Shown: positions 15,029-33,169 of the stretch, piece after piece
Layout: each line of letters starts with the position of its first letter
Numbering within the stretch: position 1 is the stretch's first letter
Source of the DNA: a virus
Reading direction: 5' to 3' (one strand)
Virus record (IMG/VR): IMGVR_UViG_3300039918_000006
Coordinates: 1 to 43,793 of that record
DNA length: 43,793 nucleotides
Position numbers and translations under genes: made by a program
The notes under the pieces: model-generated
Told to the model about the DNA's origin: nothing
Seen by the model: the letters and a program-made list of their open reading frames with translations, nothing else
Database searches by the model: none

Positions 15029-15976
15029 TTATTGTGAGAGCTGCTTGATAGTGTCCCGCACGTCTTGCATGCCAACGAGCGTCACGCCCGAGCCACGCCG
15101 ATATACGAGCTTTGCCTTCTCTAGATCGCCATACAGTACAGCTGGGAGCAACGGCATCCCCTGAGCGCGGTTGTGGGCGTTTGCCTGGCCTGTGAGCTGC
15201 GCAGGGTATTCTGTTGCACCACCGCGCTGCGCATAGGCGCGATATCGCTGCTGGAACTCTTTTGCGACAAACGGCCACTCCTTGTCATCCTTGCCACCAA
15301 CAAGGATCCAGCCTCCCATATCCGCCAGCACGCGGTGGATGGTGGCGTCATCAAAGATCACGTCATCCCATGTGCCGCGCACGCGAACGGCCTGGTCCAC
15401 CTTGCTCCAAGCGATCTGCGAGCGGTCATCGGTGCCGCCGTCGATCATCTTGATAATGTCTGTGTTCTTTGGCATCCATCGGCCCGATTCATCAGGCAAC
15501 TGCGTATGCGCCCAACAAGCCTTCTCAATCGCTTCATAGCTGTATTGGCGCAATCCCTGCCAGTAGATGCCTAGTTTAGCGCGTGACATTTCGTGGTTGT
15601 AATAATCCGACAAGCCGGTGAAAAGCGTAGCGAAACGCTTCTTCTGTTCAAGCGTGTCATCCATCGGCTCATCTGCAAGCCACTCCTGCGCGTTCTCAGC
15701 GGTCGCCTGCCCGTGCTTACCAAGCTGCGGTAACTTGCTCTTGCTGCCGCGTGTAGAGGCGTCACGGCGCTCCTTAAGCGGATACAGATCGGTCCAGTTG
15801 TTAGCCGTGGATTGGTCGAGGATCGCGCCTACATCTTCGCCAGCTGCGTGGAAAGCAGCAAGGTCTTTGATCCGCAGCTCTTCTGCCCGCTCAGTCATGG
15901 GTTTCTTGATACGCTTGCGCATTTCAACCCAGCCGTTCCAGGCTTCTAACGGCATCCAGTCAGGTAGGCTTGTCAT
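15029..15976 (-). CDS. Putative replication initiation / primosome-recruiting protein
   Basis: 315 aa. The N-terminal LPDWMPLEAWNGWVEMRKRIKKPMT...NNWTDLYPLK resembles the N-domain of phage replication (O/DnaT-like) proteins. It is the only replication-type gene seen. Confidence 0.5.
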   Translation of the reverse strand: MTSLPDWMPLEAWNGWVEMRKRIKKPMTERAEELRIKDLAAFHAAGEDVGAILDQSTANNWTDLYPLKERRDASTRGSKSKLPQLGKHGQATAENAQEWLADEPMDDTLEQKKRFATLFTGLSDYYNHEMSRAKLGIYWQGLRQYSYEAIEKACWAHTQLPDESGRWMPKNTDIIKMIDGGTDDRSQIAWSKVDQAVRVRGTWDDVIFDDATIHRVLADMGGWILVGGKDDKEWPFVAKEFQQRYRAYAQRGGATEYPAQLTGQANAHNRAQGMPLLPAVLYGDLEKAKLVYRRGSGVTLVGMQDVRDTIKQLSQ

Positions 15977-16419
15977 TTCGGTTCTCTCGTTTCCACTGAT
16001 TCTTCACGTAATGCAGCCTCTGCTAATATCCCCTTGATGTGATCAAGGACAGGACCATGCATGTATTCGTCTGCGTGAAACCCGCACATCTCTTGAATCT
16101 CAAGCATGTCACGCACGATACCGCCTGCCTCGCACCGACGCGATTCACGGCCTGCTTCTAGTCCTGCTTCGAAAGCATCCTCCTGAATGTCGACAACTGT
16201 ATCTCGGCTGTAGCCCCACCGAACATCCCTCATGTCATCCATTTCTGGCAGCGATGGGAGTTCGCATTCTGCTGCCTGCTTATTAGCATCAGACTTGGAT
16301 TTCAGAATGTAGACTTTGCAACCCTCAGGAACATCTTCTGCCTTAAAGCAGACCATCGTGAATCCTTCGGTTGCCGGCATGTACGATGCAGATCCAACTT
16401 CTTTTATTTCTTTTCCCAT
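15973..16419 (-). CDS. Hypothetical protein (148 aa, acidic)
   Basis: GGGAGAG RBS. ATGA overlap with the downstream gene. It lies immediately downstream of structured element L. Confidence 0.65.
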   Translation of the reverse strand: MGKEIKEVGSASYMPATEGFTMVCFKAEDVPEGCKVYILKSKSDANKQAAECELPSLPEMDDMRDVRWGYSRDTVVDIQEDAFEAGLEAGRESRRCEAGGIVRDMLEIQEMCGFHADEYMHGPVLDHIKGILAEAALREESVETREPK

Positions 16420-16875
16420 TTCACTCTCCCTTGTTGTTTCGTTCAGGCATAAGACTAGCCAAGGGTTTGACCTCCCCCTCAGCCATACCTAACCAAGATT
16501 CCGGCTAGGTACTGCTGCTGCCACTAGGCTACCAATTCGATTTCCAGAGCGCCCGTTACGTGGGCTAATCGCCATGCGTCAAACTGTTGCTCTGTTCCTG
16601 GGATACCTTGGTAAAGTTCCACGCGCCGGCTAGTCAATAAGCGCAGACCATCAACTCCAAGCGGGTAGTCTTACTTCCCCTCTGCTATCGGGTGGAGTCC
16701 GGTCGATGTGGAAGCAGAAATGCAAAAAGCCCTTAAAGTTTCGGCTGTTCCTTGTGGAGGCAAGGGGAATCAGATCCTATCTAATCCCAAAAACAACCGA
16801 AGCTTTAAGGGCTTCAACCTGTCAACGCCTCCACATCGACAATTCAATTATTACGCAGCTTCAACCACCTTGCAA
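16420..16875 (-). ncRNA. Structured non-coding element L (candidate riboregulator / sRNA / ssDNA signal), paralog of element R
   Basis: No credible ORF. Promoter-like TTGCAA (16870-16875), 17-nt spacer, AATAAT (16847-16852) on the minus strand. Long hairpin plus U-tract, a pseudoknot-capable leader, and colinear similarity to 22507-22937. Confidence 0.5.
16716..16815 (-). terminator. Long hairpin with U-tract inside element L
   Basis: Minus-strand GAAGCCCTTAAAGCTTCGG (rc 16797-16815) pairs with CCGAAACTTTAAGGGCTTT (rc 16726-16744) with 1 mismatch and 1 G-U. The loop is 52 nt and is followed by TTTTTGCATTTCT. Confidence 0.5.
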
Positions 16876-17055
16876 GCGTTTTCTCTCTTGAAGCTTCACT
16901 AGGAACAGTTCCCACAGGCCCGCGTGCATCTTGGCCTTGCCTCCTTCCCAGTCTTGCCAGGTTCTCAGCTTGGAGTGGATAAGATCGGCTGCTTCTGCTT
17001 GCGTGAGCGTTTCCTCTAGACGCTTGGTCTTGATCTCACTTGGTTCTGGTATCAA
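16861..17055 (-). CDS. XRE-type helix-turn-helix protein
   Basis: 64 aa. RLEETLTQAEAADLIHSKLRTWQDWEGG is a typical HTH_XRE core. Confidence 0.65.
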   Translation of the reverse strand: MIPEPSEIKTKRLEETLTQAEAADLIHSKLRTWQDWEGGKAKMHAGLWELFLVKLQERKRLQGG

Positions 17056-17275
17056 TGTTCCTCCTTTTTGCTATCAATCGTTCTGTCGCTTCTTGGCGCT
17101 CTTGCCCGTTACTTGGAAGGCTGAGGCGAAGTGCTAGGAACTCGCTGGCTTCATCTTGAGTCATGAACAGAATCTCCGCGTATTGCTGGTCTGAGTGATG
17201 GGCTACGGCGTCCATTCTTACCTTGGCCGCCGCTGCTATCTCATCCATCCTTTTTAAGACTTGCTGGCAATCCAT
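17036..17275 (-). CDS. Hypothetical protein (79 aa)
   Basis: ORF in the operon, with a 20-nt overlap with the downstream HTH gene. Confidence 0.5.
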   Translation of the reverse strand: MDCQQVLKRMDEIAAAAKVRMDAVAHHSDQQYAEILFMTQDEASEFLALRLSLPSNGQERQEATERLIAKRRNIDTRTK

Positions 17276-17391
17276 GCTTCAGCTTCTTCTTTGGTTTCCA
17301 AGACTTGGAGAACTTCGCCGTTGTTGTCCAGGACGCGGAACATGGTGATTTTCTTGCCCAGGAATTTCATGTTGAAAGTGTTGATGGTCAT
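17254..17391 (-). CDS. Small hypothetical protein (45 aa)
   Basis: ATG at 17391 preceded by AGGGGA. The longer ORF-track start would run through a terminator. Confidence 0.45.
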   Translation of the reverse strand: MTINTFNMKFLGKKITMFRVLDNNGEVLQVLETKEEAEAWIASKS

Positions 17392-17431
17392 TTTGTTTCC
17401 CCTTTGTGTTGTTGCGTTGTCGATGAAGTTC

Positions 17432-17459
17432 ATTATACGCGGATTCCGTGCAAACACAA
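17432..17459 (-). promoter_or_regulatory. Sigma70-like promoter (minus strand)
   Basis: Minus strand: TTGTGT (rc 17454-17459), 16-nt spacer, perfect TATAAT (rc 17432-17437), just downstream of a terminator. Confidence 0.4.
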
Positions 17460-17480
17460 GCAGTATTTGCATGTGACGTG

Positions 17481-17503
17481 AAAAAGCCCGCACGCGGCGG
17501 GCT
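17481..17503 (-). terminator. Rho-independent terminator (minus strand)
   Basis: The minus strand reads AGCCCGC-CGCGT-GCGGGCT followed by TTTTT, 27 nt after the stop of the 17530..17850 gene. Confidence 0.7.
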
Positions 17504-17529
17504 TGTGGTTGATGAATAGAACTGAAGAG

Positions 17530-17850
17530 TCACGCAGGCCCGAACAGCGCAATGTGCAGAGGGTCGCGCACAAGGTGCGGCGTCCACGTGCTGGTGATGA
17601 TTTGCTTCGCGCGGTCGATACGCGAACCCATAGACATATCTTTGCCAGTAGCTTCCCAGCTTGAAAAGCGGCTACCTGGGATAGCAGTCTTGCGGATGCA
17701 TTCGACGCGCGCCAGGTGCGCCAGCTCGCTGCCAGCCGTGCGTTCGTCGATGTTGAAAGCTCGGGCGATCTGTCGTGCGGTCAAGCCAGGATTGTCAGTG
17801 ATGTATTGCAGGACCATCGAGCGACGGCTTTGTTCTTTCGGGAGGGTCAT
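17530..17850 (-). CDS. Winged-helix DNA-binding protein
   Basis: 106 aa. VLQYITDNPGLTARQIARAFNIDERTAGSELAHLAR is a MarR/wHTH-like motif. Confidence 0.6.
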   Translation of the reverse strand: MTLPKEQSRRSMVLQYITDNPGLTARQIARAFNIDERTAGSELAHLARVECIRKTAIPGSRFSSWEATGKDMSMGSRIDRAKQIITSTWTPHLVRDPLHIALFGPA

Positions 17851-17852
17851 GG

Positions 17853-18482
17853 TTAAAGTCCTAGTGCAGAGAAAATGCCTTTCGGCGCTGTGTTTGGCTT
17901 GATGCCGCGCGCTACCCGCTGTTCTTCGCGCGACATACGACGGAAACTGATACGTTCCTTGCTTGTCTCATTGCCGACCGCGTAGACGGCTGCACGCGAG
18001 CCTTTGGGATGCGGCAAGATCCAGGCGCGTACGTGAATCGATCCCTCTTGCTTCAGCGCGTAGATAATGAATCGGGTATAGCTATAGCTGATACCTAGAC
18101 GCTTGGCGAGATCGTAGGTGGTGCTCGGCAGCGCCAATGCAGTCAGAACTTTCTCTTTCCAGATGTCGGCCTTCTTCTCGATCTTCGTCTTCGGAGCTGG
18201 TACATAGATCACATCGGGATTACTTCCAGCCGCATAGACCTTCGCAGGCTTGTTGCGGTCCACTGGCTGCCATGCGGCCACGTAGACACGTTTCTGTTCG
18301 TGCAGGATGCTCAGATAGTCGCGCGCCGTATCGTGGCTTACGTGCATGGTCTGGCTTAGCTCCTTGGCTGTCATCTGATTGGTGGCCAGCAGATCAAGGA
18401 TGCGAGCAATCCGACGATCCATACGAGGGGTTGCGCGACTTGCTTGCTCGGGTGTTCGTGGATTTCCCATTTCATTCCTCAA
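17853..18482 (-). CDS. Tandem winged-helix DNA-binding protein
   Basis: 209 aa with two wHTH-like segments: ILDLLATNQMTAKELSQTMHVSHDTARDYLSIL and LALPSTTYDLAKRLGISYSYTRFIIYAL. Confidence 0.55.
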   Translation of the reverse strand: MRNEMGNPRTPEQASRATPRMDRRIARILDLLATNQMTAKELSQTMHVSHDTARDYLSILHEQKRVYVAAWQPVDRNKPAKVYAAGSNPDVIYVPAPKTKIEKKADIWKEKVLTALALPSTTYDLAKRLGISYSYTRFIIYALKQEGSIHVRAWILPHPKGSRAAVYAVGNETSKERISFRRMSREEQRVARGIKPNTAPKGIFSALGL

Positions 18483-18708
18483 TAACCATCTGTCGCGGGT
18501 CTACTTCCCGCAGAATGTAGATAACGTCCTCTTGATCGCAGTTAGCCAGGCCAGCCAGCAGCGCGAGTTCTACGGCCTTGTTGCAGACAGAGACGCGCTG
18601 GCGTTGGAACAGGCAGTTCCGGCAGGCGCGACCTGGCTTAGTGGTGAAGTTCAGGCTAGCAGGGTTGATAGGTGCGTCGTAGAGGTCAGCTAGGGCGACC
18701 ATGTTCAT
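18472..18708 (-). CDS. Hypothetical protein (78 aa)
   Basis: ORF in the operon, overlapping both neighbours by a few nt. Confidence 0.55.
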   Translation of the reverse strand: MNMVALADLYDAPINPASLNFTTKPGRACRNCLFQRQRVSVCNKAVELALLAGLANCDQEDVIYILREVDPRQMVIEE

Positions 18709-19226
18709 GGCAGACTTTTTAGGAATCTGGCGTTGTCAGGGAAGTTCTCGATATATCGCTGCGGAACTACGGAACCTGACCAGAGATTGTTAGTTTCCCA
18801 AGCTTGCCCAGCGCGTTCAATGAACCACCTCTGACCGCCAAAACCCAAAAATTCTTTATTTCTCGCATGCGGTTGATTTCCGCCATCAGCATATGTGTGC
18901 CCATTGATGACAAGGCGTCTTGGGTCTTTTTTAAGAGACAACTGTTTCCAATAGTTGCAGTGGAAGCAGGTCTGATCGGCAAGCATTTGATCCTTGCTAG
19001 GCTGAACATATTGGGCGCACTCCAGTGCTCCGCACTCTGAGCACATGTACAGATCAAAACCCCGCTTGAGTTGGCCAAGGTAAAAGTTTCGGTTATTTTC
19101 GATATGACGCATACGATGATGCGCATCTGACTTTTGGGGTTCCGTAACCTCTGATGCGATGTTTTCCAGCATTCGGCCAATCGAAATTCGGTATGCTTCT
19201 TCAAAGTTCTCAACTGTGATTTTCAT
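18705..19226 (-). CDS. Hypothetical Cys-cluster (zinc-binding-like) protein
   Basis: Preferred start is the ATG at 19226 with an AGGAAGAAG RBS. Contains CSECGALEC...CFHCNYW. The upstream ATG at 19283 has no RBS and lies inside a hairpin. Confidence 0.55.
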   Translation of the reverse strand: MKITVENFEEAYRISIGRMLENIASEVTEPQKSDAHHRMRHIENNRNFYLGQLKRGFDLYMCSECGALECAQYVQPSKDQMLADQTCFHCNYWKQLSLKKDPRRLVINGHTYADGGNQPHARNKEFLGFGGQRWFIERAGQAWETNNLWSGSVVPQRYIENFPDNARFLKSLP

Positions 19227-19295
19227 ATCTTCTTCCTGTATAATCACTTTCAATACGGCCCCGCCCTCTGCGCTCTCATGCATCGGCGGGGTTCT

Positions 19296-19943
19296 TTATT
19301 TGATGCCTAGCCGTTTCTCCAAGCGGCGAATCTTCTTGCGCAAGATAGCTGCCAGGCGCTCCAGGTATTCGTCGCTGTACTCTCTTTCGCGCTTGTGGCA
19401 CTTCAGCCAGTCCACGCGCTCATCGCCAACCTTCTGACGCAATCTCGTCTCGTACGGTCCGATGTTCCCAGCCATGAAGAAGTTGCATTGATCGCACGCC
19501 TTGTGAATGTTCCACAGGTTGAACTGCAGGGCTGAATTGCTGCCAACGCTCTTGAAGTGCGATCCGTGCCACTTGCCTCCACTCCAATGCGCCGGCTTGT
19601 CGCAGCTAATGCAGCCATAAGCGTGGTCACGTAGCACCGCATAACGCTGCGCCAGCTTACGTACTGGCTCCGCCTTCTGAGCCACGGTCTTGTGCTCCTG
19701 CTTCTTCTTGCGATCTGCTGCACGCTCGGCTTTGGCCTTAGCCTGGCGCAGCTTCTCGACACGTTGCAGCGCGATGACTGCGCCGCAATCCTCGCTGCAC
19801 CAAGTCTCAAACGGGCGGCGGTCGTTCGGCACGTACAGCGCGCGGCAGTCACGGTTGGCGCATTTCTTCTTTCGCGGGCCTTTGGCTGGCTTCGATTGCG
19901 ATGGTTTAAAGCCTGTACGAACTAGCTCACTTCTCTTCATCAC
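19296..19943 (-). CDS. ninG: NinG/Rap-family recombination endonuclease
   Basis: 215 aa. An N-terminal Cys pair, a basic coiled region, and C.SC....W......GH..S......L.FNL.N....C..CN match the lambda NinG family pattern. Confidence 0.75.
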   Translation of the reverse strand: MMKRSELVRTGFKPSQSKPAKGPRKKKCANRDCRALYVPNDRRPFETWCSEDCGAVIALQRVEKLRQAKAKAERAADRKKKQEHKTVAQKAEPVRKLAQRYAVLRDHAYGCISCDKPAHWSGGKWHGSHFKSVGSNSALQFNLWNIHKACDQCNFFMAGNIGPYETRLRQKVGDERVDWLKCHKREREYSDEYLERLAAILRKKIRRLEKRLGIK

Positions 19944-20127
19944 GTTTGCTCATAAGAATATGGGTAGGAACAAACATAATGAAAATACCGAAGGCAAACA
20001 TAAGGCCGCAAAGCAAAGTTACCGCTTGCTCATTGCCTCGTTCTAGCATGTTCAAACCGGAGTACCATCCGACAAAGACCATAAATAGCAAGGCACAAAT
20101 CGATGCTAAAAATGCTTTTTTCATCAT
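19927..20127 (-). CDS. Small two-TM membrane protein
   Basis: 66 aa, hydrophobic, with an ATGA overlap with ninB. Confidence 0.55.
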   Translation of the reverse strand: MMKKAFLASICALLFMVFVGWYSGLNMLERGNEQAVTLLCGLMFAFGIFIMFVPTHILMSKRDEEK

Positions 20128-20588
20128 TGACCCTTTGCGGAAAATTGGACGCCAAGCGCTGCGCCGAACGCAAAAACTTGCTCCAGATAGTTTGAGTATC
20201 CCTTAACGGTAAGCTGCTTAGTCGATCCAACTAAGATGCGCTCGCCGCTTGGGTCGATGTCCCACTTCACATAGCCTTCCAAACACTGCTCAGGATCGAA
20301 CTCTTCTGGTAGAAAATGACGTTTGCAGTATTCGTGTAGAACCTCGACGCTGTACTGCCTGCCCTCAAACCATGCCTGCTCCGATATATCGCGCAGCGGG
20401 CCGGCAAACATCAAAGCTTGCTGATCTGGCTTACGTGCCTTCACTTCTTCACGCGCTACTACTTCAACAGGCCGCAGCGGATCAATAGGCAGGTTACGCA
20501 CAAGTGCCAGGAGGCTATCGCGCACCTTCTCATCACGCAGGATGAACTTGCGCGGCTGCATGGCAGGCCGGTTACTCTTCGCTCGCAT
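20124..20588 (-). CDS. ninB: NinB/Orf-family recombination mediator
   Basis: 154 aa. KPDQQALMFAGPLRDISEQAWFEGRQYS...STKQLTVKGYSNYLEQVFAFGAALGVQFS parallels lambda Orf (RSLDQNRKLWACLGDVS...STSRMRVGEFAELLELIQAFG). Confidence 0.7.
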   Translation of the reverse strand: MRAKSNRPAMQPRKFILRDEKVRDSLLALVRNLPIDPLRPVEVVAREEVKARKPDQQALMFAGPLRDISEQAWFEGRQYSVEVLHEYCKRHFLPEEFDPEQCLEGYVKWDIDPSGERILVGSTKQLTVKGYSNYLEQVFAFGAALGVQFSAKGQ

Positions 20589-20706
20589 AGATGCTCCGCT
20601 GTTCCACCTCGATACTCTGGTGATAGGCCATCACATCGATGCCGAAGCCAGCACCAAGCAGAAAGCCAAAGGTGATTAGGCTGAATATGATGAGAAAGTC
20701 GTTCAT
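20572..20706 (-). CDS. Small single-TM protein (44 aa)
   Basis: Translation: MNDFLIIFSLITFGFLLGAGFGIDVMAYHQSIEVEQRSIYASEE. ATGA overlap with the HTH gene and 17-nt overlap with ninB. Confidence 0.4.
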   Translation of the reverse strand: MNDFLIIFSLITFGFLLGAGFGIDVMAYHQSIEVEQRSIYASEE

Positions 20707-20912
20707 TTGCGCACCTTGGCATAGCTGCGAGCGGATTGAACGCGCTTCAGGCCCATTTCGCTAAGCATTGCTTCAGTCGGCTCATTGTGGCCGTTAAGGA
20801 TGCGCGAAATATATGTGCTGCTGAAGCCCCAGTGATCGGCGGCCTTCTTTTGCGTCTTGTACTTGTCCACAATGTGCACGCGAAGCTTGTGAAGTAGTTC
20901 CTGCTTTTCCAT
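20703..20912 (-). CDS. Cro/YdaS-like HTH regulator, first gene of the leftward arm
   Basis: 69 aa. KTQKKAADHWGFSSTYISRILNG is an HTH motif. AGGAGA RBS. It is adjacent to the divergent promoter region. Confidence 0.7.
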   Translation of the reverse strand: MEKQELLHKLRVHIVDKYKTQKKAADHWGFSSTYISRILNGHNEPTEAMLSEMGLKRVQSARSYAKVRK

Positions 20913-20939
20913 CTGTATCTCCTAGTTGGTGAAGGCTTC

Positions 20940-20967
20940 ATTATGCGCCAACGCTGAGTATAGTCAA
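20940..20967 (-). promoter_or_regulatory. Leftward early promoter candidate
   Basis: Minus strand: TTGACT (rc 20962-20967), 16-nt spacer, CATAAT (rc 20940-20945), about 25 nt upstream of the HTH gene ATG. Confidence 0.5.
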
Positions 20968-20976
20968 GAAAAATAA

Positions 20977-20993
20977 TTTACAAAGACTGTAAA
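20977..20993. promoter_or_regulatory. Operator-like inverted repeat TTTAC-N7-GTAAA
   Basis: TTTACAAAGACTGTAAA lies between the divergent promoters. Flanking (T/A/G)(A/C)CAAAG repeats sit at 20979-20985, 20992-20998 and 21003-21009. Confidence 0.3.
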
Positions 20994-21001
20994 CAAAGTT
21001 G

Positions 21002-21030
21002 TTGCAAAGGCTGGGTAGAAGTGGCATAGT
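21002..21030 (+). promoter_or_regulatory. Rightward early promoter candidate
   Basis: TTGCAA (21002-21007), 17-nt spacer, CATAGT (21025-21030), followed by the leader hairpin CGCCGA-GGCGT-TCGGCG (21041-21057). Confidence 0.45.
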
Positions 21031-21078
21031 GATGTTCATCGCCGAGGCGTTCGGCGCGGTGTAACAGGAGAAGAGAGT

Positions 21079-21243
21079 ATGGGCGATAAGCAAATTGGTA
21101 TTTCTATAATGATCATTTTGACCATGATTCCGTGGCTGTATATTCTTAAGACGGGTAAGAAGACCATCGAAGTAAATGTCTTAGTCTTAGTTGTGTTCGT
21201 GGCTCTTTACGCGCTCGGACTGTTCATGGCCTTTAAGCGTTGA
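21079..21243 (+). CDS. Small two-TM membrane protein (54 aa)
   Basis: AGGAGAAG RBS. Translation: MGDKQIGISIMIILTMIPWLYILKTGKKTIEVNVLVLVVFVALYALGLFMAFKR. Confidence 0.5.
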   Translation: MGDKQIGISIMIILTMIPWLYILKTGKKTIEVNVLVLVVFVALYALGLFMAFKR

Positions 21244-21264
21244 TAGCGAAATATTGAGAAGAAG

Positions 21265-21429
21265 ATGATCCAGAACTTGCACCAACAGCGTTACATGGTC
21301 AGCCCCTGCGGCAAGCACGCTGACTTCTACAATGCCGGCCAGGAGCCTACTGGCTGGACCGATGCAACAGAATTAGATGACGCAGCTGTCGGTGAGTTGA
21401 TGGTGCGTCGAATGATGGCTAACTACTAG
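21265..21429 (+). CDS. Small hypothetical protein (54 aa)
   Basis: GAGAAGAAG RBS. Translation: MIQNLHQQRYMVSPCGKHADFYNAGQEPTGWTDATELDDAAVGELMVRRMMANY. Confidence 0.45.
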   Translation: MIQNLHQQRYMVSPCGKHADFYNAGQEPTGWTDATELDDAAVGELMVRRMMANY

Positions 21430-21443
21430 AAAGGGAAGAAGAA

Positions 21444-21602
21444 ATGAACCGTATCAGCACAAAGCCCACTCTCCGTGAGCGCCTATTCCGCAATCCTCCA
21501 CTACTGTTCGTAGTAGTGATGGTTGCATTCTTTGCCCTGATCGGAACAGCAGAGTTTATCTCTGTAATGCTGGGGGCTGCTTTTGATGTTCGTGCGGGGT
21601 GA
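21444..21602 (+). CDS. Small single-TM protein (52 aa)
   Basis: AAGGGAAGAAG RBS. Translation: MNRISTKPTLRERLFRNPPLLFVVVMVAFFALIGTAEFISVMLGAAFDVRAG. Confidence 0.45.
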   Translation: MNRISTKPTLRERLFRNPPLLFVVVMVAFFALIGTAEFISVMLGAAFDVRAG

Positions 21603-21979
21603 TGATGGATCACGGAAAAGAAATCGTAGAGCTTGCAGCTAAAGCGGCTGGCATCGAACTTGCGTGCTGGGATGAGGTTCATCATCAATGGTATCGAATG
21701 AAAGATGATCCAGAAAAGGTGCGGCAAACCGGAAATGGATATGGCGCTGCTGTTTTTGATCCTTTGGATGATGATGGCGATGCTCTGCGTTTGGCTGTAA
21801 TACTAGGGCTTGAGATATATGAGGGGTCTTGCGATGACCAGATGCAGACTTGGGTTGGCTATGCTTTGCAGGGGAAAAGAACTCGTTATTTATCCGAATA
21901 TCATGGCAAAGATCGTTATTTAGCTGCCCGTCGTGCAATTGTGAGAGCTGCTGCCGAGATCGGAAAGGCAATGCCATGA
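21602..21979 (+). CDS. DUF2591-like phage protein
   Basis: About 125 aa. AAKAAGIEL...FDPLDDDGDALRLAV is the characteristic pattern of this phage family. The start is TGATG-coupled (the ORF-track GTG at 21599 is also possible). Confidence 0.6.
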   Translation: MMDHGKEIVELAAKAAGIELACWDEVHHQWYRMKDDPEKVRQTGNGYGAAVFDPLDDDGDALRLAVILGLEIYEGSCDDQMQTWVGYALQGKRTRYLSEYHGKDRYLAARRAIVRAAAEIGKAMP

Positions 21980-22140
21980 CCACTTACCGAATAGTTATCG
22001 ACTTCAAGCGCGGCCCTAGCTACGGCCCTACTGAGGTAAGAGCACCAGATGAGCAGTCAGCCAAGTTCATGGCTTTGCGTGAGGCGCAGGGATTTGGGTT
22101 TGACGATGAACCGAAGGATTACCAAGTGCGCCAGGATTGA
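21976..22140 (+). CDS. Small hypothetical protein (54 aa)
   Basis: ATGA-coupled internal ATG at 21976. Translation begins MTTYRIVIDFKRGPSYGPTEVRAPDEQSAKFMALREAQGFGF. Confidence 0.5.
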   Translation: MTTYRIVIDFKRGPSYGPTEVRAPDEQSAKFMALREAQGFGFDDEPKDYQVRQD

Positions 22141-22192
22141 ACGTAACGCCGCCCTGCGCGCGGCACCGGCAGGATAACTAAAGGGGAGCAAT

Positions 22193-22510
22193 ATGAGTGT
22201 CATCAATGACTACATGAAAAACAATCGTAGCAAGAAACATGGTTGGCTGGTACGGCGTTTGGCTTGCAACGACGGCTTCACCATGTCTGTGCAAGCATCG
22301 GAATATAACTATTGCAAGCCGCGTCGCTCAGATGAGGATTGGTATTACCAAGTTGAGGTCGGCTATCCTAGCGAAAAACCTTCCGCTTTCCTTGAGTACG
22401 CAGAAGATCCAAACCAGCCGACGGAAACGGTATATGGGTACGTTCCCGTCGAACTGGTCGAGCAAGAGATTGCGCTTCATGGCGGTTTGAAAGGACCACA
22501 AGAAGATTGA
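22193..22510 (+). CDS. Hypothetical phage protein (105 aa)
   Basis: GGGGAG RBS. Conserved-looking core GFTMSVQASEYNYCKPR...VYGYVP...HGG. Confidence 0.65.
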   Translation: MSVINDYMKNNRSKKHGWLVRRLACNDGFTMSVQASEYNYCKPRRSDEDWYYQVEVGYPSEKPSAFLEYAEDPNQPTETVYGYVPVELVEQEIALHGGLKGPQED

Positions 22511-22937
22511 CGCAGATTAGTCTGCTTGATGTAGAATGTGCTTGTTGGCGTGGAAACCGACGAACAGTAGTGACCTAAGCCTCTTAGGTTTGAGCCCGCA
22601 AGATTACGAAATGGAATAGAGCCCATTTCCTAAGATTGTTTCCACCGGGTTCAAACCTAAGGGGCTTTTTGCTTTTCTAGACCACGCCAGCCGTACTCCA
22701 GACGATACCAAGCGCAAACCTCGGCGGCGTGGAAGAACAGAGTAGCGGTAGAGCTTAGGCTCAAGGTGCAATTCCTACAATCCGCTGGCTGGCGTAAATC
22801 CTGCGGCCAAGGGCGTAACGGCTAGACCGTTAGCTGGCAGGAATCCCGTAAGGGGGCGGCGTCCAAACCTTCCTGCCTCATAGTCTCCGGGGTTAGGGGG
22901 CGTTTGGGCGGAATTATCTTAACTAAAGGGGAAGAGG
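22507..22937 (+). ncRNA. Structured non-coding element R (candidate riboregulator / sRNA / ssDNA signal), paralog of element L
   Basis: No credible ORF. TTGACG (22507-22512), 19-nt spacer, TAGAAT (22532-22537). A 19-bp hairpin plus U-tract, a pseudoknot-capable leader, and a G+C-rich hairpin-dense 3' part reaching the next RBS. Confidence 0.5.
22579..22676 (+). terminator. Long hairpin with U-tract inside element R
   Basis: 22579-22597 pairs with 22647-22665 (17 Watson-Crick + 2 G-U). The loop is 49 nt and is followed by TTTTTGCTTTT. Confidence 0.5.
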
Positions 22938-23282
22938 ATGAAAAAAGGCGTGCTAATGGGTTACCGCCTTGAGTGGAAACCCGGAGATTACATCTACGAA
23001 TCTCCAGAGCACTACGCTAAAGACATATGCAAAGCAAGTGCTAGAACTTGGGGGTTATACACCGAGCCTCAAGAGGGATGCGATCAGGCCATAGAGGTCT
23101 ACTACGGAAGACATTGGGTTCAGCCTAAGAATGTTCACGGAAAGTGCCTAGATGGATTCACAGCACTGTATCTCGGTCCGATCTTGCATCAGCCGCCAAT
23201 CGATGAAGATATCATCTTCGCTTTCCCGAGCATTGTGGAAGATTTACTTAGGACTTCCAAGCCTGAACTATTTAAGGAGTAG
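22938..23282 (+). CDS. Hypothetical protein (114 aa)
   Basis: AAGGGGAAGAGG RBS, immediately downstream of element R. Confidence 0.65.
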   Translation: MKKGVLMGYRLEWKPGDYIYESPEHYAKDICKASARTWGLYTEPQEGCDQAIEVYYGRHWVQPKNVHGKCLDGFTALYLGPILHQPPIDEDIIFAFPSIVEDLLRTSKPELFKE

Positions 23283-23495: not shown

Positions 23496-24086
23496 ATGGA
23501 ACAGATTAGCAAAATCGCGCCGGCATTCATCGCGGCCAAGAAAGCCTTCGGGCCGGCGCTGAAGGCCAAGAACAATCCGGCCTTCAAGGGTAGCAAGTAC
23601 GCAGACCTCGCAGCTTGCCTGGAAGCTGTAGATGATGCGTTGCTTGAGCATGGCATTGCGCTCTACCAGGAAACCTCGCTTGACGACACTGGTGTGACTA
23701 TCGAAACATGCTTCTTGCATGAGTCTGGCGAATTGATCCGTGGCGGCAAGCTCCATGTGCCCGCATCTAAGCAAGACCCACAAGGCTATGGCTCCGCGCT
23801 CAGTTATGCCAGGCGATATTCGCTGATGGCGGCGTGCGGTATCGCTGCTGAAGATGATGACGGTAATGCCGCATGCAGGCCTTCTGCACCTCGCCTAAGC
23901 AAACCAGCGCCAGTTGATATCGAACCCTGGATCGCTAAGATGCTTGCCGCCACCAGCTCCAAAGAGCTTAACAAGGTAGCGCAGGAAGCATGGGACGCAA
24001 CCCAAGACGAGCGCATCACTACCGAACACTCGCGCATCCTGGCCGAGCGCAAAGCAGCAGCTAAACAACTCGCGGAGCAAGCATGA
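23496..24086 (+). CDS. erf: ERF-family single-strand annealing protein
   Basis: 196 aa. KYADLAACLEAVDDAL...GYGSALSYARRYSLMAACGIAAEDDDGN matches the conserved ERF core (GS..TY.RRY.L....GI..DDD). Confidence 0.8.
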   Translation: MEQISKIAPAFIAAKKAFGPALKAKNNPAFKGSKYADLAACLEAVDDALLEHGIALYQETSLDDTGVTIETCFLHESGELIRGGKLHVPASKQDPQGYGSALSYARRYSLMAACGIAAEDDDGNAACRPSAPRLSKPAPVDIEPWIAKMLAATSSKELNKVAQEAWDATQDERITTEHSRILAERKAAAKQLAEQA

Positions 24087-24325: not shown

Positions 24326-24364
24326 TTGCACGAATGCGAGCCGAGGCAATCGGCTTGTGACACG

Positions 24365-24390
24365 AAGCCGCCTAGTGCGGCTTTTATTTT
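24365..24390 (+). terminator. Rho-independent terminator
   Basis: AAGCCGC (24365-24371), loop CTAGT, GCGGCTT (24377-24383), followed by TTATTTT. Confidence 0.75.
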
Positions 24391-24456: not shown

Positions 24457-24636
24457 ATGGCTCGACCAGTGCTGAAGAAAACCGAGAAGGCGCTTGCCTT
24501 ACTCGATAAGCCGCATCCGAAATATCCAAACCGTAACTTCACTGTGTTCGAAGCAGCAGCAAAGTACGGTGTCGGATTGACGACGATGTATCGCCACATT
24601 AACAAGAGCAAACAGCAGGGAGAAAAGAATGACTGA
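24457..24636 (+). CDS. Small HTH DNA-binding protein (59 aa)
   Basis: Translation: MARPVLKKTEKALALLDKPHPKYPNRNFTVFEAAAKYGVGLTTMYRHINKSKQQGEKND. AAKYGVGLTTMYRH is a resolvase/psq-type HTH. Below the ORF-track cut-off. Confidence 0.6.
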   Translation: MARPVLKKTEKALALLDKPHPKYPNRNFTVFEAAAKYGVGLTTMYRHINKSKQQGEKND

Positions 24637-25672
24637 CAACACCAATACTGCCGCTACCTCGGGCGATGCCCCGGACCTGCAACAGCTCAAGGCGCTGGCA
24701 CTGGCGGCAACGCCGGGACCGTGGGTTGCTGGCGAACCGATTCCTGGCGCACCGCGCTTCCTCGTGGCCGATTGCGGCCCGGTGGGGAAGGTCTATCCGG
24801 CAGATCAAAAGCCGTCGCACGGCACAACCAGCATGGACGACGCCAAGTTTATCGCCGCTGCCTCGCCTGCCGTTGTTCTCGGCCTGATTGCCCGCATCGA
24901 GAGCGCCGCAGCTCCTGCACCGCAGTTCCGCAAGCTGACAAGCGAGCTTTCGCTGAACGAGTTAGCGCGCGAGTTCTTCGCAGTCTCCGCACTCGGCGGC
25001 GATGTCACGCTGTCGTCGGGGGCCTGCCTCAAGCTTTACGAAGCCATGACCACGCCACCAGCCGCAGCTCCTGCTACCGCATCGGGCGATGAGCTGCCGC
25101 CGCTGCCTGAGCCAGTATCTGCCGCCACCAAGCCGACCGCCGACCTGGGCGGCTTGCAGCGTTATGGCGAAGTTGCCGAGGCGGATGGCAGTGGCGAGTA
25201 CGTGACCAAGGCGGCAGATGGCGAGTTCGTCAAATTTTGCGACGTTCAATCCCTTCTCGCCACCAAGCCAGCAGCAGCGCCGGTAGTGCCGGAGGGGTTC
25301 TTGGTCGTGCCCAAGGTGCCGACGCGCAGCATGATTGCCAAGACGATCGATGCCGTGTTCGATGGCGCAATCGAGGATGCCAGCGTGATCGAAGAAGTCT
25401 ACGCAGCCATGATCGCCGCCACTCCTGCCGCCTCCACTACTGGAGCGGCACAGACTGCCGAACAGGTGCGGAATCAGGCGCTGGAACAGGCGGCGAAGGT
25501 TTGTGACGGCGTGCATAAAGAGTACGTGCATCACGCACGCAGGCGCGGGGAAACCGATGAGGAATTCTACGATGCCTACATGAACAAATCTCTGGCGTCT
25601 TCGGAATGCGCAGCCGCTATCCGCGCCCTCAAGCGCCCCACCCCTACCCATAGCTCGGAGGCAGGCGAATGA
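24629..25672 (+). CDS. Ead/Ea22-like protein
   Basis: 347 aa. The N-terminal LKALALAATPGPW...AKFIAAASPAVVLGLIARIE is the Ea22-like signature, and the remainder is Ala/Pro-rich. Confidence 0.6.
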   Translation: MTDNTNTAATSGDAPDLQQLKALALAATPGPWVAGEPIPGAPRFLVADCGPVGKVYPADQKPSHGTTSMDDAKFIAAASPAVVLGLIARIESAAAPAPQFRKLTSELSLNELAREFFAVSALGGDVTLSSGACLKLYEAMTTPPAAAPATASGDELPPLPEPVSAATKPTADLGGLQRYGEVAEADGSGEYVTKAADGEFVKFCDVQSLLATKPAAAPVVPEGFLVVPKVPTRSMIAKTIDAVFDGAIEDASVIEEVYAAMIAATPAASTTGAAQTAEQVRNQALEQAAKVCDGVHKEYVHHARRRGETDEEFYDAYMNKSLASSECAAAIRALKRPTPTHSSEAGE

Positions 25673-25872
25673 AGATCATAAAACAAGGTATTGCACCCGA
25701 AAGCGTACCGCTGCATGGCCGGTGCAACCACTGCCGAACCGAAATCGAGTTCTTGCCGATGGAGGCGAAGTACAACAGCGATCAACGCGACGGTGATTTC
25801 TACTCAATCGAATGCCCGACATGCCGCCGCACGATCACGGCAGCGGTGCGCGGCTACAACGGACCCGGATAA
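25669..25872 (+). CDS. Small zinc-ribbon protein
   Basis: 67 aa with CNHC...CPTC pairs, ATGA-coupled. Confidence 0.6.
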   Translation: MKIIKQGIAPESVPLHGRCNHCRTEIEFLPMEAKYNSDQRDGDFYSIECPTCRRTITAAVRGYNGPG

Positions 25873-25883
25873 GGACTGACCCC

Positions 25884-26558
25884 ATGACCACTACTACCCC
25901 CACCACGGCACTGGCCGACCTGGACCTGGACCTTGATGAGCTTCGGGCGTTGTGCGATGCAGTGAAGCGCCCATGGTACGGCACGCTCCAAATCGCCGAC
26001 GGCGTGACCGATGACGACGCCGTTGCGTTCATCGAGGCATTCAGTCCGGACACCGTGTCCGACCTGATCGCCCTTGCCCGTCGCGCAGCCCAGCCTGCCG
26101 AGGGCGCAGCACCTGTAGAGCAATTCGCCAGCGACTTAGCCGCGCGTCAAGTTGAGTTACCTGCTGATTTCGCTAACGTGCTCGCCAATATGCCGTACGA
26201 AGAAGAGCCTGCCGAGGGCGCAGGGCAAGCCGGTCAGTATGCGATCACGCAGGTTCGTTCGGTATGGGTGAAACCAGGCGAGACCCTGGCGACGGGCTGG
26301 CACGATGTCGAAGCCAACTCGAAAGAGGTTGAGCACGCACACCAACACCCTGACGCCTACGAGGTGCGCACGCTCTACACCGCCCCTACCGAGCGCGCAG
26401 CGGCACCGGCAGACCCGCTGGATCAAAAACTTCCATGCGCCATCAGCATCGGTAATGTCGAACTGACCACGAATGACAGGCTGGGCACGCTGGTGAAGAT
26501 CGCTCAGCAGCTCGACCGCGCCACTCAACAGCCCAGCGCACAGAAAGGCGGTGCGTAA
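25884..26558 (+). CDS. Ead/Ea22-like protein (paralog)
   Basis: Internal ATG at 25884 after [20 protein letters not shown]...[21 protein letters not shown] parallels the N-domain of the 24629 gene. Confidence 0.55.
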
Positions 26559-27862: not shown

Positions 27863-30157
27863 ATGGCAGATCAAAAGCTATACAAGTGGGGGCCGAAAGG
27901 CATGCTGGTGGCGAAAGACAGCGATCCGGATGACATCAAGTTCACCGAGAAAGCTGATCTGGGTCTATTCGGCGGGCCGACATCGAAGATCGTCAAGAAC
28001 CTGCCTGGTTATGCGTGGGCGGCGAAGGAAATGAAAGCCGGCACAAAGTACGCAAAGATTGCCGACGTGCAGGCACTGATGGGCGGCAAGCCTGTGCCGC
28101 AACCTGTGCCGAATCCAGAGCCTGTGCCGGCGCCGCCCGCGCCAACACCGGTTCCTCCACCGCCGCCACCGAAGGCTATTACCTCGCTGCGCATCCAGAG
28201 CACTGGCGACAAGGTGCAGGCAAATGTGCCATTCACGGTGGGCCAAGTGTTCGCACCCGGTGATCTAGCGGAAGGCAAGGGACTTGTCGGGCTACTGGAA
28301 GACGGCACCACGATTCCGTTGCAGTTCGACGTAAAGGCACTTCATTCCGATGGTTCGGTGCGGCACGGCGTTGTGTCTGGTGTCATACCTAGCGGCGAGC
28401 CAGGAAAAGATATTGTGGTTGGTTTAGCTCCAATTGCCGATCAGAAGAAAGGTCTTGTCAATGCTGTTGCTTTCCCCAAAGTGACACTTGTTTTTGAAGG
28501 CAAAACCTATCGAACCGGCGGTAACAAAGGAGAGGCCAAATACTGGCTAGCCGGACCGATTGTTTCGGAAATGCATACGAATCAGCCGTTCTTTGATGAG
28601 AATGGAATTGAACACCCGCATCTCTGTGCGCGTTTTGGTAGTCGAGTGTACTTCGCTGGGCAAGCTCGTTTGGATTTGGTCATTGAGAATGCGTGGGCAT
28701 ATGAGCCTGAGCCACGAAATTTCACCTATGACGTGCTTGTTGAGTTTGACGGTAAAACGCTTTACGAGAAGAAGGCGCTCACCCATTACCATCATGCGCG
28801 CTGGCGCAAGCTATTCTGGTACGGGGAAGAGCCGAAGATCAACGTCGTCCACGATCACCGCTATCTGATCGACTCGCGCGCTTTGCCAAACTACGATCCA
28901 TCGATTAGCGTGCCAGAAAGCACCATCAAGGCTTGGGTCAAACGCTGGGATACTGCCGAGAAGGAGCCGATGAAAGTCGGTCTATCGGTTAAGGGCATGG
29001 CTACTACTGGCGGTCGTCCAGATATTGGAATGCTACCTGCTTGGAATGCCCTGTGGCTCCTGACAGGCGATAAGCGGATGCGTGATATGGCTCTCGGCAC
29101 GGCGGATCTAGCAGGCAGCTGGTCAATGCACTACCGCGACAAGAACACAGACCAGCCGGTTAGCCTGATCGACTATCCTTATATGACGATTCTGGGGCGC
29201 TCGACAGACACCAAGAATCCGGCAACGAAGAAGTACGAGGCATTCCCTGCCCTGGTCAAAGGCCAAAATAAAAGCCCGTACAGCCACGATAGTGCGCACC
29301 AACCAGGGTTTGCATACCTTCCATATCTGATGACAGGTGATTTCTACTATTTGGAAGAGCTGCAAATGTGGGCGATGTACAACATCTTCCAATCGAATCC
29401 TGGCTCCAAGTCCTACCGTCAAGGTATCAAGGGGCTGGTGATGACGGATCAGGTGCGCGGCCAGGCATGGAGTTTGCGGACTCTCGCTCAAGCAGCTTAT
29501 ATCACGCCAGATGGTGACCGCTTGAAAGAACACTTCATGAGGATTCTGGGGACGAATCTGGAGTGGTATAACGCCACCTACACTTATAATCCCGAGGCCA
29601 ACAACCTAGGCGTGTTCACGCATAAGTCTGCAATCGTCTACAAAGACACGACCGACGAGATTGCATCGAATACCGCCTTGGCCCCATGGCAAGATGACTT
29701 TGTGACGGCGGCAGTTGGGTATGTGGTTGACCTGTTTCCTGAGCTGCCTGCCGCGCGCGACTTCTTCAAGTGGAAATCGAAGTTTGTCATTGGCCGATTT
29801 ACTGACCCGGAATTTAATTGGATTGTGGCGTCGAATTACAGCCTGACGGTTCGTGCCACGCCAGAGGGGCCGATCTACAAGACGTTCGGTGAGGTATACC
29901 GCGATACTGTAGGCGACAAGGTTGCAGCCCTGCCATTCGATAAGGTGGCCGAAGCACTCGGCCGCAAGCCTAACGATATGGGCGGCTATCCCACCAGCAC
30001 CGAGGGATTCCCAGCCAATGCACAGCCAGCAGTGGCTTACGCAGCGACATACGGCGGTGAAAAGGGTAAAGCGGCATGGAAGCAATTCCAGAAGCGCGAC
30101 CCTAAACCGAATTACGGAACTGGGCCACAATTTGCCATCGTGCCGCGTTCGGTGTAA
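27863..30157 (+). CDS. Large protein, putative polysaccharide lyase/hydrolase-like (beta-sandwich + alpha/alpha-toroid type) behind a Pro-rich linker
   Basis: 764 aa. The N-domain is about 70 aa, followed by the linker PVPQPVPNPEPVPAPPAPTPVPPPPPPK. GLLEDGTTIPLQFDVKALHSDGSVRHGVV resembles the first beta-sandwich of PcRGLX/heparinase-like enzymes, and SHDSAHQPGFAYLPYLMTGDFYYLEEL looks toroid-like. The fold call is tentative. Confidence 0.4.
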   Translation: MADQKLYKWGPKGMLVAKDSDPDDIKFTEKADLGLFGGPTSKIVKNLPGYAWAAKEMKAGTKYAKIADVQALMGGKPVPQPVPNPEPVPAPPAPTPVPPPPPPKAITSLRIQSTGDKVQANVPFTVGQVFAPGDLAEGKGLVGLLEDGTTIPLQFDVKALHSDGSVRHGVVSGVIPSGEPGKDIVVGLAPIADQKKGLVNAVAFPKVTLVFEGKTYRTGGNKGEAKYWLAGPIVSEMHTNQPFFDENGIEHPHLCARFGSRVYFAGQARLDLVIENAWAYEPEPRNFTYDVLVEFDGKTLYEKKALTHYHHARWRKLFWYGEEPKINVVHDHRYLIDSRALPNYDPSISVPESTIKAWVKRWDTAEKEPMKVGLSVKGMATTGGRPDIGMLPAWNALWLLTGDKRMRDMALGTADLAGSWSMHYRDKNTDQPVSLIDYPYMTILGRSTDTKNPATKKYEAFPALVKGQNKSPYSHDSAHQPGFAYLPYLMTGDFYYLEELQMWAMYNIFQSNPGSKSYRQGIKGLVMTDQVRGQAWSLRTLAQAAYITPDGDRLKEHFMRILGTNLEWYNATYTYNPEANNLGVFTHKSAIVYKDTTDEIASNTALAPWQDDFVTAAVGYVVDLFPELPAARDFFKWKSKFVIGRFTDPEFNWIVASNYSLTVRATPEGPIYKTFGEVYRDTVGDKVAALPFDKVAEALGRKPNDMGGYPTSTEGFPANAQPAVAYAATYGGEKGKAAWKQFQKRDPKPNYGTGPQFAIVPRSV

Positions 30158-32704: not shown

Positions 32705-33169
32705 ATGACCGATAAGAAGCCACGCCGTACCCGCTCTGACAGTGCTGCTGCTGCCATTCGCGCGGCTGAAAACGCGGTCAAGCCAGACCTGGAGCCGCCT
32801 GAATCACACCCGTTGACGGCGGACGAGATGCCATTCTTCCGCGACATCGCCAGAGGCCGTGCCCGTGATGACTGGCGCGAGGTTGACTTGCAGATCGTGG
32901 CGCAGCTTGCCAGGGTGATGGCAAAGATTGAGCGATTCGAGACTCGGCTTAGCAACGAAGAGCCTGTCATTGACGGCAAGCCTAATCCGCTTATCAGCGT
33001 AATCGGAACCTATCGCGCAATGCAGGGTTCCATGATGCGCACGCTACAGCTTGGTGGGCGTGTCGCTGTTGATCCGCGCAATCTGCACAAGGCGCGCGAT
33101 CTCGAAAATCAAGCCCGCAAGACTGCGGACCAAGTTGCAGCAGAGGATAACGCTCTGCTGGCTGATTAA
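32705..33169 (+). CDS. Terminase small subunit (P27-family-like)
   Basis: 154 aa, immediately upstream of and overlapping the large terminase gene. Size and helical character fit P27-type TerS. Confidence 0.7.
   Translation: MTDKKPRRTRSDSAAAAIRAAENAVKPDLEPPESHPLTADEMPFFRDIARGRARDDWREVDLQIVAQLARVMAKIERFETRLSNEEPVIDGKPNPLISVIGTYRAMQGSMMRTLQLGGRVAVDPRNLHKARDLENQARKTADQVAAEDNALLAD

Follow-up and report, generated by a model that had tools for sequence, protein, structure and literature searches.

The 43,793-nucleotide viral record IMGVR_UViG_3300039918_000006 of IMG/VR, analysed here over its full length (positions 1 to 43,793, hereafter the window), carries a large pseudoknotted RNA module in two copies that have diverged from each other. 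Element R lies on the plus strand at 22507-22937, and element L is the reverse complement of 16420-16875 (read from 16875 to 16420 on the minus strand). L precedes the replication arm of the phage and R the recombination arm. Both belong to a genuine, strongly supported phage RNA family that has apparently not been catalogued. The whole module measures 350-450 nt and runs from a promoter through a 5′ RNA and a spacer to a highly conserved 3′ domain. Its most likely role is to gate transcription entry into early operons, and we regard it as evenly balanced whether it acts in cis as a bipartite operon-entry module, with an attenuator followed by a structured leader. To our knowledge, very few RNA elements of phage early transcription have been described (nut, put and a few riboswitches), all of them from cultured model phages.

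Two inverted copies of one RNA module

A first-pass annotation of the window, made by eye, had aligned R with L in four colinear blocks and proposed that the elements were related. The similarity is real, with a local alignment score of 37 compared with 19.4 +/- 2.2 for dinucleotide shuffles (z = 7.9; maximum 33 in 500 shuffles), whereas the plus strand of L scores only 17 against R. The significant aligned core covers about 60 nt (R 22652-22710, L 16742-16683) and coincides with the first two blocks; the other two are not homologous under the family model described below. In the third block (R 22723-22748, L 16584-16627) non-homologous positions had been matched, and the family model instead aligns GGCGGCGUGGAAG of R with ACCCGCUUGGAGU of L at about 16666-16654. 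The fourth is probably not homologous, because GGCUAGUC of L forms the 3′ strand of an L-type long-range helix and the 3′ end of R follows a B-subfamily pattern. All three helices that had been described as kept despite sequence divergence, namely a 19-position hairpin before the U-tract, a leader-to-loop pairing and a leader-to-post-U-tract pairing, are present in R and L as described. Both elements also fold more stably than their shuffled counterparts (z = -3.3 for R and -4.3 for L).

Within the window the two copies stand alone. Each element contains one occurrence of either diagnostic motif, the rest of the window contains none, and exactly two sites are matched by the covariance model built on the family core: 22688-22743 on the plus strand (65 bits) and 16646-16705 on the minus strand (46 bits), with the next-best match at 10 bits. 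A homologous pair also exists in a related phage: the close relative L239, whose O-like protein is 94% identical, keeps both inverted copies. This inverted arrangement is confined to the window and L239; in L240, which is related more distantly, the L-type copy is the only one within 8.8 kb. Elsewhere, no second copy was found within about 7 kb by regular expression or covariance model, and for 94 of 100 loci the covariance model reports a single copy.

The RNA family and its two domains

The family was collected from IMG/VR with the 16-base pattern CCGNACTCCANNCGATANCA. Among the 120 matches listed, GCNUGGA follows the pattern after 30-52 nt in 113, and a U-run lies within 45 nt upstream in 95. 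The pattern matches that carry GCNUGGA therefore define a large family, present in at least 113 IMG/VR viral contigs; with its covariance model (R1), 94 of 100 loci reach scores of 45-77 bits. The U-tract motif GGGCTTTTTGCWTTTCT was also tried as a search key and returned mostly unrelated terminators.

Neither Rfam nor the genomes of about 50,000 cultured phages contain the family, and almost no bacterial genome does. As the first-pass annotation had stated, neither element belongs to a named RNA family: scans with Rfam 15 returned nothing at R or L (gathering cut-offs across the whole window; E up to 10 on 16300-23100), and scans of 13 other family loci at E up to 5 returned nothing at the element. 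The C4 antisense RNA of the P1 c4 / P4 CI type likewise had no match in the window scans, given a C4 model that we take Rfam to include. Blastn searches of INPHARED and plasmids with the region, each element and member L101, and of INPHARED and PLSDB with a 60-nt consensus core, were empty or gave chance 19-mers. Among the 185,579 species-representative genomes of GTDB, a 22-base gapped pattern identified only two contigs of metagenome-assembled genomes, one from a Gammaproteobacteria bacterium and one from a Methylococcaceae. A sub-threshold Rfam match to Betaproteobacteria_toxic_sRNA (40.6 bits, E = 7e-5) adjoins one member (L077:132-190, minus strand) and hints at proteobacterial (betaproteobacterial) hosts. 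The core sequence was not found in the texts of the papers searched; a viral survey lists 10,006 candidate RNAs (PMC10690425).

The 3′ domain spans 190-280 nt (median 230 nt from the box, where conservation begins, to the terminal YUUGG...UAU motif). Conservation starts abruptly at the box, behind a variable spacer, with the nearly invariant core CCGUACUCCAxACGAUAyCA...GCNUGGAAG, and a 20-nt core is kept across phages of unrelated gene content. In an alignment of 77 distinct cores, 98.7% of the pair cells are standard, compared with 25-50% when the partner is slid, and 138 cells carry double changes as against 41 in shuffles (none of 500 shuffles reaches 138). Positions 4:12 (U-A 72, G-C 9, C-G 4) and 11:18 (C-G 46, U-A 13, A-U 11, G-C 9, U.G 7) include those left as N in the search pattern and covary almost perfectly. 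RNAalifold proposed other partners for two of these bases, x11 with the N of GCNUGGA and y18 with the C that follows; these pairs do not covary and were discarded in favour of x11:y18, which does.

Extending the model to the full 3′ domain of the R-containing subfamily yields 47 pairs in 12 helices, 92.6% of them paired, with double (compensatory) changes at 21 pairs (0/500 shuffles). Pseudoknots join the box loop UCCA to UGGA and a hairpin loop to a downstream strand, and the long-range closing helix uses the last spacer base plus CC. The L-type, represented by three sequences, has another distal architecture with 15 compensated pairs. G.U pairs far exceed A.C pairs (133 vs 9, and 44 vs 3), so the fold is that of the sense-strand RNA. 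The domain is thus a conserved multi-helix core in a 5′ untranslated region (UTR), with covariation as in riboswitches and structured leaders and among the clearest obtainable from about 100 sequences. Conservation of this degree implies that the domain has a conserved molecular partner or else a core that catalyses a reaction or binds a ligand, and identifying it would reveal either a new mode of early-operon gating in phages or a novel class of functional RNA. One member (L041:~900-1177, minus strand), in which the box lies directly behind a protein-coding gene without a 5′ domain, has an insertion of ~200 nt in one hairpin of the 3′ domain.

The first-pass annotation had treated each element as one unit of ~430-455 nt, but the module consists of two separable domains, since some 3′ domains lack the usual 5′ domain or are combined with another. 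At the 5′ end, the sigma70 consensus TTGACA-N16-18-TATAAT is matched at 9 or more of 12 positions in 30 of 49 members, compared with 6.5% of shuffles, and in most cases 6-7 nt separate the end of the -10 hexamer from the 5′ hairpin. Of the promoter-like hexamers reported for the window, those of L match at 9/12 positions; those of R are present but mediocre (8/12 at N17). The 5′ RNA that follows, of ~100-130 nt, comprises a hairpin, typically GUUGNNGU...CAAC, and a long hairpin ending in GGCUUUUUU. The second contains an internal loop whose 3′ side pairs with the loop of the first, and because the long hairpin ends in a U-tract, the 5′ RNA is a pseudoknotted intrinsic terminator. R combines a 19-bp stem with UUUUUGCUUUU and L a 19-bp stem with UUUUUGCAUUU, which places both among intrinsic terminators.

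The loop pairing is proven by the specificity with which each leader matches its own partner. The perfect Watson-Crick duplex averages 7.29 bp for cognate and 4.48 bp for non-cognate combinations, an excess that none of 10,000 permutations reaches, and 47 distinct duplex sequences occur, including the R pair and the L pair. A test of duplex length only, with G.U allowed, was uninformative and was replaced by this cognate versus non-cognate comparison. The pseudoknot and the terminator stem can form together.

Between the terminator and the box lies a spacer of 3-27 nt. In a subset of members only, the spacer is complementary to the leader strand (11 bp in L of the window, 10 bp in L051, 8 bp in R, and others); here too cognate exceeds non-cognate pairing (0/10,000 permutations), and the pairing is possible only after the U-tract has been made. 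A second spacer pairing, with the core (CCACGCC with GGCGUGG in R), was rejected as a family-wide switch, with values of 4.63 for cognate and 4.62 for non-cognate combinations. One subfamily replaces the usual 5′ RNA by another promoter, a short hairpin and U6, so that members with a 5′ RNA of another type still have a terminator just before the box. Members L005, L015, L022, L038 and L061 begin with a different small RNA and its own terminator, followed by a second promoter, the short hairpin-U6 and the box. In L023, L033, L060 and L044, a structured insert of ~110 nt that ends in the pyrimidine run UCCUCCUCC separates the 5′ terminator from the box.

Possible roles at the entry to early operons

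The genes that follow the element have early DNA-metabolism functions. Replication initiators come first in 29 loci from 11 RNA clades; elsewhere the first gene encodes RecT or Erf (single-strand annealing proteins), a ParB-like, DpdA-like or Mom-like protein, a C5-methyltransferase or, in three clades, the major head protein. The 3′ domain is always co-oriented with these genes, and the element serves as a practical marker of early-operon boundaries in metagenomic phage contigs. In the window, R and L are structured RNA-level modules before the delayed-early genes of the two arms, as the first-pass annotation had it, and the genes downstream of R and L are indeed unrelated to each other.

Structure, strand, transcription signals and position together lead us to the operon-entry role. 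Polymerases arriving from upstream early genes, or starting at the promoter of the module, would for the most part end transcription at the terminator and set the small 5′ RNA free, which would keep the downstream DNA-metabolism genes low (an attenuator or insulator). With a promoter and a terminator in place, a discrete RNA of ~100-130 nt should therefore be released. The fraction that reads through would make the spacer and the 3′ domain. In the clade of the window, the leader could then swap from its hairpin partner to the spacer (8-11 bp), closing the 5′ domain and placing the box at the base of a helix. The folded 3′ domain may in turn set the fate of the read-through transcript through its stability, protection from Rho or ribosome loading, acting via a conserved host component or a ligand. 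A bolder proposal, which we hold more tentatively, is that the 3′ domain represents a new large pseudoknotted RNA class (a ligand or tRNA sensor, a ribozyme, or a binder of polymerase or ribosome) that gates early operons in many uncultivated Proteobacteria phages; if so, the window phage would be a rare case with one copy per early arm, as HK022 is with put.

A precedent for the 5′ part is the pR′-6S RNA-tR′ unit of lambda, in which a strong promoter is followed ~100-200 nt on by an efficient intrinsic terminator, giving a short RNA unless polymerase reads through. The module has a similar succession of promoter, terminator and predicted short RNA. The module differs in that its short RNA has a conserved pseudoknotted fold and precedes a large conserved RNA domain, that the genes are early DNA-metabolism genes rather than late ones, and that neither a gene resembling Q nor a Q-binding element was found. 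How polymerases are stopped depends in part on terminator stems of unusual length, as in the antitermination-resistant terminators (PMC10325885), and the stems here are likewise long.

Several observations weigh against the operon-entry role. Termination efficiency and read-through at the U-tracts are predicted from sequence only. The promoter of R itself is weak. Some members (L041, L087) have no 5′ domain at all, and in the three head-gene clades a fresh promoter stands behind the 3′ domain, before the head gene, so not every member can be a purely cis-acting leader. The next start codon lies at a widely varying distance from the 3′ end of the RNA (median 67 nt, 10th-90th percentile 17-209 nt), and direct masking of the ribosome-binding site is therefore not a general mechanism; masking of a Shine-Dalgarno sequence and AUG at the 3′ end was considered and set aside, with the distances varying and the AUG conserved only in some A-type clades. 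The leader-to-spacer swap is available in only about 10-15 of 66 members, and the alternative spacer-to-core pairing is not family-specific. None of the tests run explains the function of the 3′ core, the most conserved part.

Among the alternatives, the one that survives best, though we think it improbable, is a pair of stand-alone trans-acting RNAs, an abundant, terminated 5′ small RNA (sRNA) and a separate functional 3′ RNA, the latter perhaps sequestering a host factor or defence system as a decoy or sponge, with the position before operons reflecting early expression only. A strong promoter and a terminator do bound a discrete small RNA, and for the 5′ part the earlier suggestion of independently transcribed sRNAs is plausible. 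The occurrence of the 3′ domain without the 5′ domain, the independent promoter of the next gene in some clades and the variable start-codon distance fit this explanation as well, as does the extreme conservation of the core across unrelated phages, which would suit a conserved host partner. However, most members show neither a promoter nor a terminator that belongs to the 3′ domain itself, and the constant co-orientation of this domain with downstream genes favours action in cis. The window phage, moreover, keeps one diverged copy per arm, as a cis element would need and a trans RNA would not.

The first-pass annotation had also proposed attenuators or nut/put-like processive antitermination modules. 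The attenuator part fits the order of promoter and pseudoknotted long-stem terminator. We consider it unlikely that the 3′ domain is an antiterminator, modifying RNA polymerase to ignore downstream terminators. The put RNA of HK022 binds the beta′ zinc-binding domain of RNA polymerase without protein factors. Like putL and putR, the elements are two related RNAs in divergent early operons, proposed here to act in cis, one per early arm in the window and in L239, with a sequence conservation compatible with binding of a host machine, RNA polymerase in this case (PMC9378689). An intrinsic terminator also lies 1.7 kb downstream of R, at 24364-24384, and conAn2 of pLS20, a 383-bp intergenic region, provides a precedent for a large antiterminator RNA, in that a long operon there begins with several hundred untranslated nucleotides (PMC8191782). 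Yet put is ~70 nt with two stem-loops (PMC9378689), unlike the 5′ domain of 100-130 nt and the 3′ domain of 190-280 nt with 12 helices found here. The conAn system belongs to Gram-positive conjugative plasmids, needs ConAn1, is poorly conserved in sequence and acts on internal terminators, features of which none is seen here.

The distribution of terminators argues in the same direction. Within 4 kb downstream of the element in 44 dereplicated loci (171 kb), intrinsic terminators number 17 in sense and 50 in antisense orientation, Rho-dependent ones lying outside this assessment, and 27 loci have none in sense. The threefold antisense excess suggests selection against antisense transcription of early operons. 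Whereas put stands upstream of the terminators that it suppresses, the conserved domain here lies downstream of the only constant terminator. As with lambda nutL and nutR and their terminators tL1 and tR1, the elements sit between immediate-early and replication or recombination genes in both arms and are terminator-associated. A boxA (CGCUCUUA / UGCUCUUUA-like), sought as YGCTCTTWA with one mismatch, was not found inside or beside R or L, and the window holds 21 such matches compared with 36.6 expected. In boxB a conserved loop is bound by N, whereas the 5′ loop here is unconserved (47 variants) and covaries within the same RNA; the terminator is intrinsic and long-stemmed rather than Rho-dependent, and no N-like protein was identified. 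The scarcity of sense terminators, the lack of boxA and the placement of the conserved domain past the terminator thus disfavour antitermination of the put or nut type.

No likelier is a sensor or catalytic RNA in the 3′ domain, whether a new riboswitch class, a leader that binds tRNA or protein, or a self-cleaving ribozyme that trims the 5′ domain. Near-invariant junctions and loops, several helices and pseudoknots are typical of aptamers and ribozymes, and T-box, cobalamin and glmS RNAs share with the domain its location in a 5′ UTR, a pseudoknotted multi-helix fold of 200-300 nt and invariant junction nucleotides. The associated genes have a common theme (replication, recombination, DNA modification), and the abrupt onset of conservation at the box would suit such an RNA. 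In those known RNAs, however, the terminator does not precede the conserved domain as it does here, no expression platform or terminator is conserved downstream, 190-280 nt is large for a riboswitch aptamer, and nothing in Rfam matches even at E up to 10.

The last suggestion of the first-pass annotation, single-stranded DNA initiation signals like RSF1010 ssiA/ssiB or origin parts, recalls the inverted hairpin sets on opposite strands (in this phage clade only, on the would-be lagging-strand templates of diverging forks), the many members just upstream of a replication initiator gene and the lack of a recognised primase or helicase among the ORFs scanned, but is very unlikely given the sigma70 promoters at fixed distance and U-tract terminators, the G.U-rich helices (weak as G.T in DNA), the single-copy norm and the varied downstream genes, which include methyltransferase, Mom-like, DpdA-like, ParB-like and head genes.

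Genomic surroundings of the elements

The window is a siphovirus-type phage genome, with a tape measure gene at 917-5701, TerL at 33169-34701 followed by the portal, and an HK97-type head gene at 36844-38022. Its early region is organised in lambdoid style, and a divergent promoter pair near 20940-21040 splits it into two arms. The leftward arm encodes a helix-turn-helix (HTH) protein, NinB, NinG/Rap, two HTH regulators and three small open reading frames (ORFs), then element L, a 148-aa ORF and an O-like replication initiator. The rightward arm encodes six small ORFs, then element R, a 114-aa ORF and Erf. Megablast and blastn found nothing similar to this region among INPHARED phages. The parts of both elements are listed in Table 1.

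Table 1. Positions of the parts of elements R and L and of the genes that follow them
Feature	Coordinates	Strand	Basis or remark
R promoter-like hexamers	TTGACG 22507-22512, TAGAAT 22532-22537	+	19-nt spacer; sequence and promoter scan, 8/12 at N17; overlaps stop codon of ORF 22193-22510
R 5′ domain RNA	22544..22676	+	
R P1 hairpin GUUGGCGUGGAAACCGAC	22544-22561	+	
R long terminator stem	22579-22597 with 22647-22665	+	19 bp
R pseudoknot	GUGGAAAC 22550-22557 with GUUUCCAC 22638-22645	+	family-wide pseudoknot test
R U-tract	22666-22676	+	
R spacer	22677..22690	+	
R spacer-leader pairing	CCACGCCA 22682-22689 pairable with UGGCGUGG 22546-22553	+	8 bp
R 3′ domain	22691..22917	+	B-like subtype
R box CCGUACUCCAGACGAUACCA	22691-22710	+	then helix c, then GCGUGGAAG
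R 3′ domain, remainder			three-way junction, two pseudoknots, pyrimidine tract paired with G-rich tract
R 3′ domain end GGAAUUAU	22910-22917	+	
R Shine-Dalgarno-like GGGGAAGAGG and ATG of ORF 22938-23282	22928..22940	+	114 aa, no family match
Erf gene	23496-24086	+	after ORF 22938-23282
L promoter-like TTGCAA-N17-AATAAT	16847..16875	-	9/12; overlaps 3′ end of ORF 16861-17055
L 5′ domain RNA	16718..16842	-	
L pseudoknot	leader UGUGGAGG 16835-16828 with CCUCCACA 16760-16753	-	
L terminator stem	16815-16797 with 16744-16726	-	19 bp; U-tract from 16728
L spacer	16702..16717	-	last base shared with first box base
L spacer-leader pairing	UCCACAUCGAC 16712-16702 with GUCGAUGUGGA 16840-16830	-	11 bp
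L 3′ domain	16449..16702	-	L-type
L box CCGGACUCCACCCGAUAGCA	16702-16683	-	
L 3′ domain, pairings			extended ACUCCA:UGGAGU pairing; long-range helix GACUAGCC/GGCUAGUC
L 3′ domain end CUUAU	~16449	-	
L Shine-Dalgarno-like AAGGGAGAG and ATG (16419-16417) of ORF 15973-16419	16417..16436	-	148 aa, no family match
O-like replication initiator	15029-15976	-	after ORF 15973-16419

Two candidate protein associations were rejected. A tie to the O-like initiator fails in that only the two closest of 40 loci encoding O-like relatives carry the element, and all-against-all clustering of ORFs within 8 kb gave no family present in most RNA clades, as a conserved partner protein would be. Erf is the commonest ORF family near the elements (26 of 49 clades) and is usually encoded in the divergent arm. 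Mechanical ORFs at 16706-16891 (plus strand) and 22604-22771 (minus strand) overlap the elements of the window, and the biggest clusters of ORFs that the family shows around the box are likewise such overlaps and not genes; they arise from conservation of the RNA.

L006, L014, L018 and L052 have, at the 3′ end of the element, a Shine-Dalgarno sequence together with a mini-ORF of 3-5 codons (AUG-CCU-AAA); the major head gene, preceded by a consensus promoter, comes directly after. The same AUG in other A-type clades opens a longer upstream ORF or the replication-initiator gene itself.

In the window, the ORFs just upstream of the elements (22193-22510 and 16861-17055) have no informative family matches, and no tRNA or tmRNA was found. 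Besides the O-like protein, no replication machinery was recognised among the ORFs scanned. The intrinsic terminator at 24364-24384 (plus strand, about -20 kcal/mol), formed by GAAGCCGCCTAGTGCGGCTTT and a T-rich tail, lies past Erf and one small ORF and is the only strong sense-strand terminator within 4 kb downstream of either element. Farther along the rightward arm, the 764-aa ORF at 27863-30157 (plus strand) and the ORF at 25812-26558 have neither a PHROG nor a Pfam match, and the ORF at 24629-25672 lacks a Pfam match and matches only PHROGs of unknown function. In the leftward arm, a strong intrinsic terminator, GCCCGCCGCGTGCGGGCTTTTT, stands behind the winged HTH gene at 17530-17850 (minus strand) in the region 17475-17508 of the same strand, and coincides with a weak Rfam match to isrK (E = 3.4). 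Past this terminator (17400-17475, minus strand) lies a promoter-like TTGTGT-N16-TATAAT, from which three small ORFs lead into element L.

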